DNA from: Eledone cirrhosa
Taxonomy: Eukaryota
Assembly (NCBI GenBank): GCA_964016885.1
Contig: OZ024745.1
Span: forward strand, 35,030,001-35,094,000
Direction of reading: 5' to 3'
Length of the DNA stretch: 64,000 bases
The position numbers and the translations under genes are program-made. A model generated the notes under the pieces. That model saw only the letters and a program-made list of their open reading frames with translations, had not been told where the DNA came from and did not search any database. Positions 42,446 through 46,450 of this stretch are shown piece by piece. The first letter of the stretch is position 1. The number at the start of each line of letters is the position of its first letter.

Positions 42446-43499
42446 TATTATTATTAGTATGTACATACTAATGCTAAATACATTAACAAAGGCAATCGCA
42501 CACATTTTAGATACAGCATTCGCTAGCGTGTCTTCTGCAGTGTAAAACAAAGCCATCGCTCCGAATTATTTCAAAGTTATTATCAAGTATTTACGAATGT
42601 TTAGTTTAAAACCGTATCAAGTATTTACGAATGTTTGGTTTAAAACCGTAATTACCTCCAGAAGAATCATTTTACTTTATTTATTCAGAGTTCATGCAAA
42701 TCACCTTCATTCATACAAATCTAAATCTAGAAATACAAAGATAGTTCTTTATACATGGTTTACTGGAATAAAGGATAATCGATTGAGATTTACATTACAG
42801 AATTTCACGTTGGGTATGGCACACGTTTTGATATTTATTAAACAATGTGAAGCTGGCTGTCAATTGGTACACCAGAATTCGTTGCTGATGATATAAATTC
42901 AATAATTGTTTCTTCATGATTATAATAAACAATTCGAAACAAAAATAAATCACTATCTCAGAATCGTATTCAATGAAATCTGTAGAAGAGATATGAGGTT
43001 TTATTTTTAAATATTTGTCTTCAAACAAGGCATTCCTTGTTGCATATATGACAGGAGCAATTGTTGCAATTTATATGAAGCCCAGATAATGTTTGATTAT
43101 CAATAAAGGTTTAAGGTTAATGCAACTGCATTTTAGTGTATATATATATATATATATATATATATATATATATATATTTAGAAACACACAGATACATGCG
43201 GACACACACATATATACATGAATGCATCCGCACCCAACTGTGAGTTAAGGGTGCCAACTTCACCGATGTTGCTCAATGAATGACTGGGACAGACTAATTC
43301 AGTTTGAACCAGACTGAACCAGTATCAGAGTTAAAAATACATTATGAAGAGAGAATACCTCCGTGGTATTTTCTTCGTGGTTATAGGAGGCTTAGCTCTG
43401 TTTCTCGACCGTTATATCGCGTGACTGTCTCCCCCTCCGCCTTTTGGGATTCTTTCTCACGTCGTGTAGACGCGTTCTTGAGACTAGTAAAATGAGGTA

Positions 43500-43587
43500 T
43501 CCTCTTGATAAGTCGGCAGACCTCGCAGGGACTCTATATCTTTGATATATTGTTTTTGTTTATGCCACGAAACTACGTAGTCGAGGA
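43500..43587 (+). ncRNA. Type I hammerhead, U3:A8 core
   Basis: tcctc-TTGATAA-gtcggca...tgccac-GAAAC-tacgta-GTC-gagga. Confidence 0.8.
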
Positions 43588-44090
43588 ATTTAGGAACAGT
43601 TTAGGTATGATACATTTTATTACTAATTATATCTAAATGTTTCTTCTCTCTTCATAATGTATTTTTAACTCTGATACTGGTTCAGTCTGGTTCAAACTGA
43701 ATTAGTCTGTCCCAGTCATTCATTGAGCAACATCGGTGAAGTTGGCACCCTTAACTCACAGTTGGGTGCGGATGCATTCATGTATATATGTGTGTGTCCG
43801 CATGTATCTGTGTGTTTCTAAATATATTAATAACTCCCTCTGGTCGAGCAATCTTTGAAGTGTGGGGACAACTGGAAAGCTTCCATTACTCATACTTCTC
43901 GCCTTCTTCACTACCTCTTCTACGGCCTCGATATGAATACCCCCTCCGCCTCCGTGGTATTTTCTTCGTGGTTATAGGAGGCTTAGCTCTGTTTCTCGAC
44001 CGTTATATCGCGTGACTGTCTCCCCCTCCGCCTTTTGGGATTCTTTCTCACGTCGTGTAGACGCGTTCTTGAGACTAGTAAAATGAGGTA

Positions 44091-44178
44091 TCCTCTTGAT
44101 AAGTCGGCAGACCTCGCAGGGACTCTATATCTTTGATATATTGTTTTTGTTTATGCCACGAAACTACGTAGTCGAGGA
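44091..44178 (+). ncRNA. Type I hammerhead, U3:A8 core (second tandem copy)
   Basis: Same sequence as 43500-43587. Confidence 0.8.
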
Positions 44179-44391
44179 ATTTAGGAACAGTTTAGGTATG
44201 ATACATTTTATTACTAATTATATCTAAATGTTTCTTCTCTCTTCATAATGTATATATATATATATATATATATATATATATATATATATATATGTGTGTG
44301 TATGTAAACGGTAAACAGAAATAAAAATACAATCGGTACAGTATATGGAAGGTATATATTAGGTTAACGCTTAGATATAGCAGGAAGAGGG

Positions 44392-44427
44392 TCTTAACAT
44401 TTCGGACGGTAGTCCTTCATCAGAAGA
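44392..44427 (-). ncRNA. Minimal Penelope-type hammerhead (possibly degenerate)
   Basis: Minus strand: tctt-CTGATGA-a-ggac tacc gtcc-GAAAT-GTT-aaga. Confidence 0.55.
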
Positions 44428-44609
44428 AAGAATGAGAAATAAAATAGATTAAGGCGACGGGTGCGATAGAATTGGAAAAAATGTCTTTAGATAAAAAAAC
44501 AGGTCCATTCATATTGACATCTCTTATATATATATATATATATATATATATATATATATATATATATATATATATATATATATATATATATATATATATA
44601 TATATATAT

Positions 44610-45610
44610 ATATCGGATGTAGAAAGGTAACACACGAGTTAATATATATAAAAAAACAAATAGTTGAAAGGAGAAAGATGTTTTTGTAGACAATGTTGAA
44701 GAGATATTTTTGGTGAAATTTCAAAATTTTAATTTATTTTTGGCAGTATCGGTAGAGGGTCGGACGCCATGCTTTGACGCATAGAGTTACGCCCTTGCCA
44801 TTCTGAGTTCAAATCCCGCGCAGGTTAACTTTGCCTTTCATCCTTATGGGGTCGATAAAATAAAGTACCAGTAATGCACTGGGTAATTGCTGGTCTTGTG
44901 CCAAAAAGTAGAAACAATTAATTTATTTACAATACCCGTTTCAGCATTAAATGCATTTTCAATTGTGGATATGCAGAATATTGTTAAGTTGCATCCACTA
45001 TTCAAACCTTGTATCCACTATTCAAAGGGTCCCACATAGCAGTCTGCAGCGACAACAACCACCCCTACCTCCTCCCCCTCCTTCTTCTCCTCTCCCACCT
45101 GCTTCTTCCCTCTCCAGTCACAACAAAGCCATTAACAGAGAGGGATGTACTGACAAAATGACTTTCTTCTCTGAAGGACTACGTATGTGAAAATTAACTT
45201 TTCTTTCCCTCTCTATATATATTGTTTTCTCTTTTTTTGAGATTATCATTATTTTTCATTATTTGTACAAATATGCAACTTAACAATATTCTGCATATCC
45301 ACAATTGAAAATGCATTTAATGCTGAAACCGGTATTGTAAATAAATTAATTGTTTCTACTTTTGGCACAAGGCCAGCAATTACCCAGTGCATTACTGGTA
45401 CTTTATTTTTTCGACCTCGTAAGGATGAAAGGCAAAGTTAACCTCGGCTGGATTTGAATTCAGATCATAAAGAGCCGTAACACTTTGCTGCAAAGCATGA
45501 CGTCCGACCCTCTACCGATACTGCCAATTCAGTTTTGAAATTTCCCCCAAAATATCTCTTCCACATTGTCTACAGAAAAAAATCTTTCTCCTTTCTACTA
45601 TTTGTTTTCT
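44610..45610. repeat. Diverged inverted repeat with a SINE in each arm
   Basis: About 44660-44995 mirrors about 45272-45610, including SINEs at 44740-44920 (+) and 45350-45527 (-). Confidence 0.85.
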
Positions 45611-45819
45611 CTCTCTCTCTCTCTCTCTCTCTCTCTCTCTCTCTCTCTCTCTCTCTCTCTCTCTCTCTCTCTCTCTCTCTCTCTCGTTCTCACTCTCTCT
45701 CTCTCTCTCTATATATATATATAAATATATTCATATATATATATATATATATATTTATATATTTATATATATATATATATATATATATATATATATATAT
45801 ATATATATATATATATATA

Positions 45820-46450
45820 TGTCCGCATGTATCTGTGTGTTTCTAATTATATTGTTAATAACTCCCTCTGGTCGAGCAATCTTTGAAGTGTGGGGACAGC
45901 TGGAAGGCTTCCATTACTCATACTTCTCGCCTTCTTCACCACCTCTTCTACGGCCTCGATATGAGTACCCCCTCCGCCTCCGTGGTATTTTCTTCGGGGT
46001 TATAAGAGGCTTAGCTCTGTTTCTCGACCGTTATATCGCGTGACTATCTCCCCCTCCGCCTTTTGGGATTCTTTCTCACGTCGTGTAGACGCGTTCTTGA
46101 GACTAGTAAAATGAGGTATCCTCTTGATAAGTCGGCAGACCTCGCAAGGACTCTATATCTTTATGATATATTGTTTTTGTTTATGCCACGAAACTACGTA
46201 GTCGAGGAATTTAGGAGCAGTTTAGGTATGATACATTTTATTACTAATTATATCTAAATGTTTCTTCTCTCTTCATAATGTATTTTTAACTCTGATACTG
46301 GTTCAGTCTAGTTCAACTGAATTGGTCTGTCCCAGTCATTCATTGAGCAACATCGGTGAAGTTGGCACCCTTAACTCACAGTTGGGTGCGGATGCATTCA
46401 TGTATATATGTGTGTGTGTCCGCATGTATCTGTGTGTTTCTAATTATATT
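45820..46450 (+). mobile_element. Circularly permuted, terminally redundant copy of the 591-bp unit
   Basis: Begins and ends with gtccgcatgtatctgtgtgtttctaattatatt. It has scattered substitutions relative to 43358-43948 and lies in (TA)n. Confidence 0.85.
46119..46208 (+). ncRNA. Type I hammerhead, U3:A8 core (third copy)
   Basis: tcctc-TTGATAA...GAAAC-tacgta-GTC-gagga is conserved, with changes only in the stem II loop. Confidence 0.8.

Follow-up and report, generated by a model that had tools for sequence, protein, structure and literature searches.

Two insertions of a non-coding 591-nt unit

Within a 64,000-nt stretch of Eledone cirrhosa DNA (assembly GCA_964016885.1, contig OZ024745.1, positions 35,030,001 to 35,094,000 of the forward strand), hereafter called the window, two insertions of a non-coding 591-nt unit with predicted hammerhead cleavage sites adjoin a PLE. 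The locus raises the question whether this unit is a mobile element in its own right or a piece of a PLE and, if it is mobile, which RNA is copied and by which enzyme.

Cleavage at the sequence GTC|GAGGA is predicted after positions 43582, 44173 and 46203. The first two cuts are spaced by one 591-nt unit, as a preceding sequence-only reading had proposed, and delimit a monomer (43583..44173, forward strand) that corresponds to the predicted RNA circle. Both belong to insertion 1, which is composed of an inverted arm (43172..43355, reverse strand; unit 245 to 62) and, connected to it, a forward arm (43358..44253, forward strand; unit 367-591, a full unit and 1-80). The forward arm is 100% identical internally, and the inverted arm, recognised already in the earlier reading as an inverted 5' fragment, has rare alleles in common with it. 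The outer end of the inverted arm lies at a position that we call start site B, and the 3' end of the forward arm at start site A. The 165-nt segment from start site A (unit ~80) to start site B (unit ~245), the 'tail', is found at 43663..43827 (forward strand).

Insertion 2 (about 45820-46451, forward strand) consists of a single arm, about 630 nt long, that is about 96% identical, is 5'-truncated at about unit 213 and has its 3' end at site B (unit 247). Its hammerhead motif covers 46119-46208 (forward strand), with the predicted cut after 46203. It had been described as a separate, circularly permuted copy: the insertion is indeed separate, while the apparent permutation is the product of a 3' end fixed at site B and a 5' truncation at a random point slightly beyond one unit. 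Both insertions sit within (TA)n, in agreement with the target that had been suggested; for insertion 1 the flanks extend over 43139..43177 (left) and 44251..44293 (right). The DNA between the insertions (44254-45819), which had been included in the originally proposed span, is unrelated. Even in a doubled unit the longest stop-free frame is 86 aa, i.e. the unit codes for no protein, and the claim that it lacks a substantial ORF stands.

A predicted type I hammerhead with a U3:A8 core

The hammerhead motif is of type I: stem I measures 5 bp and is followed by the core U3-U-G-A-U-A8-A, stem II is long, and a palindromic stem III of 3 bp comes after GAAA. Stems I-III form in a predicted local fold. 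In insertion 1 the motif is present at 43500..43587 (core 43505-43511, GAAA at 43569, predicted cut after 43582) and at 44091..44178 (predicted cut after 44173), both on the forward strand. A search against Rfam gave no hammerhead match at E<=1. The U3-A8 compensatory core change is known from the minimal hammerheads of Schistosoma Cercyon PLEs (PMC4209133). Since a ribozyme with a U3:A8 core and a long stem II is missed by Rfam, such families may be under-counted.

Between the two subfamilies of the unit (see below) 0 of the 48 core and stem positions have changed, compared to 58/543 positions elsewhere (Fisher p=0.01), which indicates that the ribozyme is under selection. Self-cleavage at GTC|GAGGA is a prediction.

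A dispersed family that does not continue into an ORF

A 25-nt motif around the cut has 7,103 exact copies in the 3.0-Gb genome, and its reversed control has 0, a number well above chance. As an unbiased set we took every insertion holding one of the first 100 listed matches of this motif, which gave 49 loci with 50 insertions and, by extrapolation, a family size of ~3,500 insertions. Head-to-tail units of about 591 nt occur in two subfamilies about 13% apart; the older one (about 87% identical) has units of about 596 nt and ends at the same sites. Judged from its copies and their ends, the family is dispersed, high-copy, mobile and without LTR structure. The (TA)n flanks mask any target-site duplication.

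At none of the 49 unbiased loci does the unit run into an RT ORF. The 591-nt unit is therefore no pLTR belonging to an abundant autonomous PLE, the reading that had been named beforehand as the one to be checked in this way. Separate pieces of PLE ORFs lie beyond the (TA)n near 3 of the 49 loci (L186 and L207, which were read, and L198, which was judged by position).

The unit could still be the pLTR of a rare autonomous PLE outside the sample. Its anatomy is pLTR-like (hammerhead, two start sites and tail), and a query with the EN of a second PLE family ('family-2') returned 54,042 first-look candidates, from which few families were examined. We nevertheless consider such a parent very improbable: the ORF pieces near the three loci are separate insertions, head-to-tail units of ~591 nt are found in both subfamilies, and the share of contigs from run X1 that ran on into sequence unlike the unit was 0. 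A rare parent, accounting for less than about 6% of insertions, would moreover leave the 591-nt unit propagating alone.

None of the sequencing runs listed as containing the unit was an RNA run, which has no bearing on its expression. On the PLE, run X1 showed a 5'-truncation gradient as expected of DNA. Runs X4 and X5 each yielded one 620-621-nt contig at a depth of about 8 and no PLE contig, and run X6 yielded both. The contigs of X4, X5 and X6 fit trace carry-over or a relative and lend no support to horizontal transfer or to circles. A single closed contig is no proof of a circle, since a tandem array closes into such a contig too.

Insertions end at two fixed sites

Mapping the ends of the copies on the unit revealed that the 3' ends lie nearly always at site A (cut+~80) or site B (cut+~245-247), 165 nt apart. 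The unbiased 49 loci (50 insertions) comprised 24 inverted A+B insertions, 12 with A only, 12 with B only and 2 in which one end was odd. For 91 further loci, which were partly picked by queries containing ends, the numbers were 50 A+B, 18 A, 23 B and 5 odd; another 20 loci picked as A-B pairs are left out of these tallies. Among two-armed insertions A+B was found in 74/79 cases and A+A or B+B in 0/79. Genome-wide, exact ends numbered 2,560 for A and 1,657 for B, where the B pattern misses some variants, while controls gave 0. The 100 A and 66 B ends that were listed formed 37 inverted A-B pairs, 0 A-A pairs and 1 B-B pair. The single B-B pair proved to be two separate insertions.

The 5' ends, on the other hand, were spread across the unit. 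Within 10 nt of the cut we found 12/217, compared to 7.3 expected, i.e. no clear pile-up. Arms longer than one unit made up 117/217, with the longest reaching 2,907 nt, and the number of arms decayed with their length. Where two arms meet, the junctions mostly have a 0-9 nt overlap or short gaps. The free circular permutation that had been assumed for the copies is not supported: the 3' ends are fixed at A or B.

Two other origins were rejected. A fold-back origin of the inverted arm does not account for arms that often reach past what the other arm could template (e.g. at L196), and a linear cleaved monomer as template would be expected to produce a pile-up of arms ending at the cut, which was not seen.

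The two 3' ends correspond to the PLE 'tail' with its two RT start sites. In the PLE PAc, two internal positions of the RNA serve as RT start sites, and the genomic 'tail' lies between them (Frangieh 2024, PMC11167929); a tail on one of the inverted repeats has been described for PLEs (Craig 2021, PMC8557442; PMC3846280). The 591-nt repeat is a real, young, high-copy non-LTR retrozyme with a PLE integration signature. The retrozyme-like, PLE-moved element postulated in the sequence-only reading is borne out by the two PLE-type 3' ends, the (TA)n targets and the 0/49 loci with an ORF, and we regard it as highly probable that the unit is a non-autonomous element moved by PLE machinery.

Alleles within insertions and the nature of the template

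Sequence divergence was 0.30% within an arm, 0.43% across the arms of one insertion and 2.0% between loci. We scored non-majority alleles at sites covered at least 3 times in 56 insertions: 94 were present in all copies, 52 were singletons and 5 were found in all but one copy. Two alleles were partial within one arm (L205, L126) and one was in register across both arms (L137). At L212 four private alleles are present in all 7-8 units of both arms. The allele sharing together with the low divergence within insertions indicates that the arrays arose for the most part during insertion, from a single sequence variant.

Arrays could alternatively have arisen from solo pLTR-like insertions that were expanded in place by unequal crossover, as in the satellite model (Li 2026). 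Local duplication would homogenise units too, the divergence within an arm is slightly below that across arms, and at L205 and L126 the partial alleles are common to adjacent units of one arm only. These partial cases are, however, only 2 compared to 52 singletons. The divergence within arms about equals that between arms, which dates the arrays to the insertion, and both arms can be multi-unit (L212, L126, L137). In-place expansion has in our view hardly any chance of being the main source of the arrays.

Alleles recur across the units and arms of a given insertion, which speaks for a single monomer having been copied by rolling circle. A different template for the same PLE-moved element would be an uncut linear or multimeric tandem transcript that is primed internally at A and B, with circles being a side product. 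For an anole PLE in vitro, hammerhead cleavage is not needed and uncut RNA is the main template (PMC11167929). A multimeric template accounts better for the unit-specific allele of L137, which occupies the same register in the two arms, and arm numbers that fall off with length go along with a linear one; because of the L137 allele and the in vitro finding, a multimeric template retains some probability. Under purely linear inheritance, units at different registers should diverge like paralogues, yet the divergence within insertions is about 6-fold below that between loci. The single in-register case moreover contrasts with 94 alleles present in all copies, and the conserved ribozyme core would be left without a role. 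We judge the uncut template improbable and favour, with some reserve, a circular monomer that is copied in rolling-circle fashion. Junction reads are not diagnostic of circles in this family, because the genomic tandem arrays already hold the same junction.

The neighbouring PLE as candidate partner

Downstream of insertion 2 lies a PLE with a 3,331-nt unit in partial tandem arrangement (46713..50617, forward strand), the 3' end of which is its site B (cut+225). It is preceded by an inverted arm (46595..46717, reverse strand), whose outer end is its site A (cut+61). A 927-aa stop-free frame (47278..50061, forward strand) encodes first an RT with RWK and DKT, then a CxCX5C linker and last, at the C-terminus, a GIY-YIG endonuclease, and it also holds CxxC and CxH motifs. 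A Pfam search with this ORF returned 0 families, and its look-alikes in the Atlas carry GIY-YIG/RVT_1. The hammerhead motifs of this PLE, located in its pLTR, have U3:A8 cores as well (predicted cuts after 47061 and 50392), and it targets (TA)n.

This neighbour had been taken for an intact Naiad. Naiads have an N-terminal GIY-YIG EN, a DKA motif and no canonical hammerhead, while the Hydra clade is defined by a C-terminal EN, RWK, DKT, the CxCX5C linker, CxxC and CxH (Craig et al. 2021, PMC8557442). With its C-terminal EN, DKT and a hammerhead motif, the neighbour is a Hydra-clade PLE by the motif set read from its translation. The mover of the retrozyme is probably a PLE of this clade.

Whether it is the neighbour's own family is a narrower question. 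The family has 1,174 exact ribozyme motifs genome-wide and ends at cut+61 and cut+225 (the query favoured the +225 end). Its tail measures 160-164 nt compared to 162-165 nt for the retrozyme; in other hammerhead-bearing families in the flanks it is about 90-107 nt, and in one 145 nt. An alignment of the unit with the neighbour's pLTR, however, gave no sequence likeness (z=-0.2), and U3:A8 cores are present in other families of the genome. For these two reasons the neighbour is a candidate partner only, and we consider it possible, though somewhat doubtful, that its family is the actual one. Among the other families met by the family-2 EN search, a pattern search and alignments, no pLTR homologous to the unit was found; a short-loop ribozyme pattern had 3 matches, none of which was related to the unit. 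The few high alignment scores to other families stem in some cases from segments overlapping retrozyme copies. In 3/30 PLE loci retrozyme copies were present, as separate insertions, and the idea of a special physical connection to the neighbour was dropped.

Predicted RNA folds and a stem next to site A

Just past site A, at 43669..43727 (forward strand), the RNA is predicted to form a stem with CUC on one side and a 2-nt bulge and GAG on the other. A CUC ... bulge ... GAG(U/C) stem located 7-13 nt past site A was seen in 8/9 families tested, among them both retrozyme subfamilies and the neighbour, and the bulge measures 2 nt in all but one; tblastn ties four of the stem-bearing families to PLE ORFs. 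Shuffled sequences reached the stem score in 0-5/400 cases for the other families and in 16-22/400 for the retrozyme. We take the stem as a lead only, because its motif was drawn up once these sequences were known.

The predicted circle folds with z=-5.0 (relative to 40 shuffles), and the cleavage site is sequestered in this fold. Confidently predicted pairs touched by subfamily changes were kept in 22/32 cases (1 of them compensatory) and broken in 10/32. A helix between sites A and B was predicted in folds of unit 1-270 and in the alignment, with no compensatory change; it was absent from the folds of the full monomer, the circle and the neighbouring PLE. As a priming platform this helix was rejected, and it is kept as a weak lead that was seen in truncated folds and the alignment.

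A putative copying cycle

Taking these observations together, we consider it likely that the unit is a dispersed non-coding retrozyme copied by the RT of a Hydra-clade PLE from a self-cleaved, probably circular monomer RNA. In such a cycle a transcript of tandem copies would be cut by its hammerheads at two successive sites, and ligation would close the monomer into a circle, on the model of the retrozymes of coral, mussel and axolotl. Retrozyme circles have been shown, with PLEs proposed as movers (Cervera 2020, PMC7229834). Against the cycle speaks that only 1/9 retrozyme dimers was cleaved in vitro (Li 2026, bioRxiv 10.64898/2026.07.22.740005). A PLE protein, probably a dimer, may then bind near site A and nick both strands of the (TA)n target. 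On the same RNA one nick would prime at A and the other at B, and each cDNA would extend along the circle over as many as about 5 units. The two cDNAs could finally join via 0-9 nt of microhomology, which would give the inverted A+B insertion, or a single arm would be kept. For a PLE protein with a predicted dimeric state, nicking and extension of both strands have been shown on AT-rich DNA (Frangieh 2024, PMC11167929).

A more specific version is that a dimeric Hydra-clade enzyme reads the conserved CUC/bulge/GAG stem by site A and starts simultaneously at two fixed sites of a single circular ribozyme RNA, one per nicked (TA)n strand, in a double rolling-circle reverse transcription. We put it forward tentatively and would expect it to need revision rather than to hold in every part. 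If true, a ~250-nt module past the cut would suffice to integrate any RNA circle, and the copies would provide direct genomic evidence on how retrozymes move and on why inverted PLE copies bear the tail at exactly one end.

Thousands of young copies carry this PLE integration footprint, with two start sites, a near-strict rule of one end of each kind and signs of one monomer per insertion. Given a 591-nt RNA, (TA)n as target and a neighbouring candidate ORF free of interruptions, it becomes directly testable which enzyme moves retrozymes, whether the template is circular and how the inverted PLE structures arise.

Comparison with known systems

Non-LTR retrozymes and their link to PLEs have already been published (Li 2026; PMC7229834), such that the unit does not represent the undescribed system for which it had been held. 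Nor is it larger than animal retrozymes: 591 nt falls within the 51-972 bp of published families (Li 2026), although sizes of 170-400 nt are given in Cervera 2020 (PMC7229834). Retrozymes have been linked to PLE pLTRs (Li 2026), and PLEs were proposed as movers of animal retrozymes from co-occurrence and pLTR phylogeny (PMC7229834; Li 2026); of the PLE cycle itself, only parts have been elucidated (PMC11167929). The class is thus known, while the two-site ends and the one-of-each rule were not found described in the retrozyme literature covered: the words 'tail' and 'initiation' are absent from the main text of Li 2026, and titles and abstracts, with subscription papers mostly outside this coverage, held none on retrozyme insertion ends.

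Like animal non-LTR retrozymes (PMC7229834; Li 2026), the family consists of non-coding tandem units with one type I hammerhead each, in thousands of copies. The highly self-paired predicted circle, the co-existing PLEs and the size are also shared. Unlike retrozymes as described there, the unit has a U3:A8 core and a long stem II and is missed by Rfam. Its strict (TA)n targeting, the 165-nt tail between two fixed 3' ends and the inverted A+B arms were not seen in the covered text of these two accounts. In the predicted circle the ribozyme is blocked by the fold itself, which sets the unit apart from most metazoan retrozymes (PMC7229834). With the few PLE families examined the unit shares architecture, but no homology to their pLTRs was found, unlike for the retrozymes of Li 2026. 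With the minimal hammerheads of Schistosoma (PMC4209133) the unit shares the compensatory core change; unlike in Cercyon, this core is part of a non-coding unit in tandem arrangement, in which stem I is complete and the palindromic stem III has 3 bp.

The non-autonomous elements of the Chlamys clade, e.g. MRC1 (PMC8557442), are likewise non-coding, PLE-dependent and inserted as multicopy head-to-tail arrays. They belong to an algal, mostly hammerhead-less clade and have 3' sequence in common with their partners, whereas no such sharing was found for the unit. Further parallels are provided by Hydra-clade PLEs (PMC8557442), which have (TA)n targets, hammerheads, partial tandems, an inverted 5'-truncated arm and a tail at one end; they differ from the unit in that the latter encodes no protein. 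The tail of the unit measures 165 nt compared to 30-40 bp described for PLEs (PMC8557442), with 90-164 nt in the other families here. In the PAc/Poseidon PLE (PMC11167929) the start sites are adjacent and inside the ORF, whereas those of the unit lie on a non-coding RNA with a spacing of 165 nt and follow a near-strict one-of-each rule. Both systems have in common two internal RT start sites that bound the tail, the extension of both target strands and AT-rich targets.

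Proximity of the retrozyme to the neighbouring PLE family

Copies of the hammerhead-bearing retrozyme lie within 1.5 kb of the neighbouring Hydra-clade PLE family at 3 of 30 loci, the window included, in each case as separate insertions. Outside the window these copies are found at positions 2679-3105 of the fetched genomic locus L048 and 629-806 of L052. The proximity is possibly due to (TA)n hot spots common to both elements.

Further hammerhead-bearing and Hydra-like families

A second Hydra-like PLE family, distinct from the neighbour, is present in the window as an inverted insertion (28654-31290) with EN fragments at 29476-29853 and 30233-30610. 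Its hammerhead has a C3:G8 pair in the core and a long stem II, and this family, too, has two end sites, located approximately 54 and 199 nt past the predicted cleavage site.

Within the 1.07 Mb of fetched loci at least eight additional type I hammerhead repeat families were detected (L014, L067, L083, L124, L127, L138, L173, L196, L223, L265 and others). Most have two fixed ends in (TA)n with 90-107 nt between them, and part of these families may be additional retrozymes. At three loci (L121-L123) a U3:A8-type core is combined with a palindromic stem III; since two of the three have downstream sequence in common, they possibly represent an older ribozyme family.

The EN query gave 54,042 first-look candidates. 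In an abundant Hydra-like family (L091-L120), whose 3' end passes into a composite TG/TA microsatellite, no hammerhead was found.

Other repeats in the window

A dispersed SINE- or MITE-like repeat occurs at 39983-40220, 41756-42450, 44740-44900 and 45382-45528. The copies at 44740-45528 form a facing inverted pair inside the span of the retrozyme insertions and are unrelated to the retrozyme. A (TA)n-inserted repeat with long terminal inverted arms is found at 51118-51371, where it forms an almost perfect hairpin, and at L186:1740-2250. ACCACC and TAACCC-like tandem arrays occupy 12213-12601, 13640-13756 and 15397-15514.

Open reading frame of the neighbouring PLE

In the ORF of the neighbour (47278-50061) a long Asn/Arg/His-rich stretch (aa ~500-790) separates RT from EN. 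Due to this stretch the neighbour is longer than described Hydra elements, which measure less than 3 kb; N-rich inserts are on record for rotifer Penelopes.
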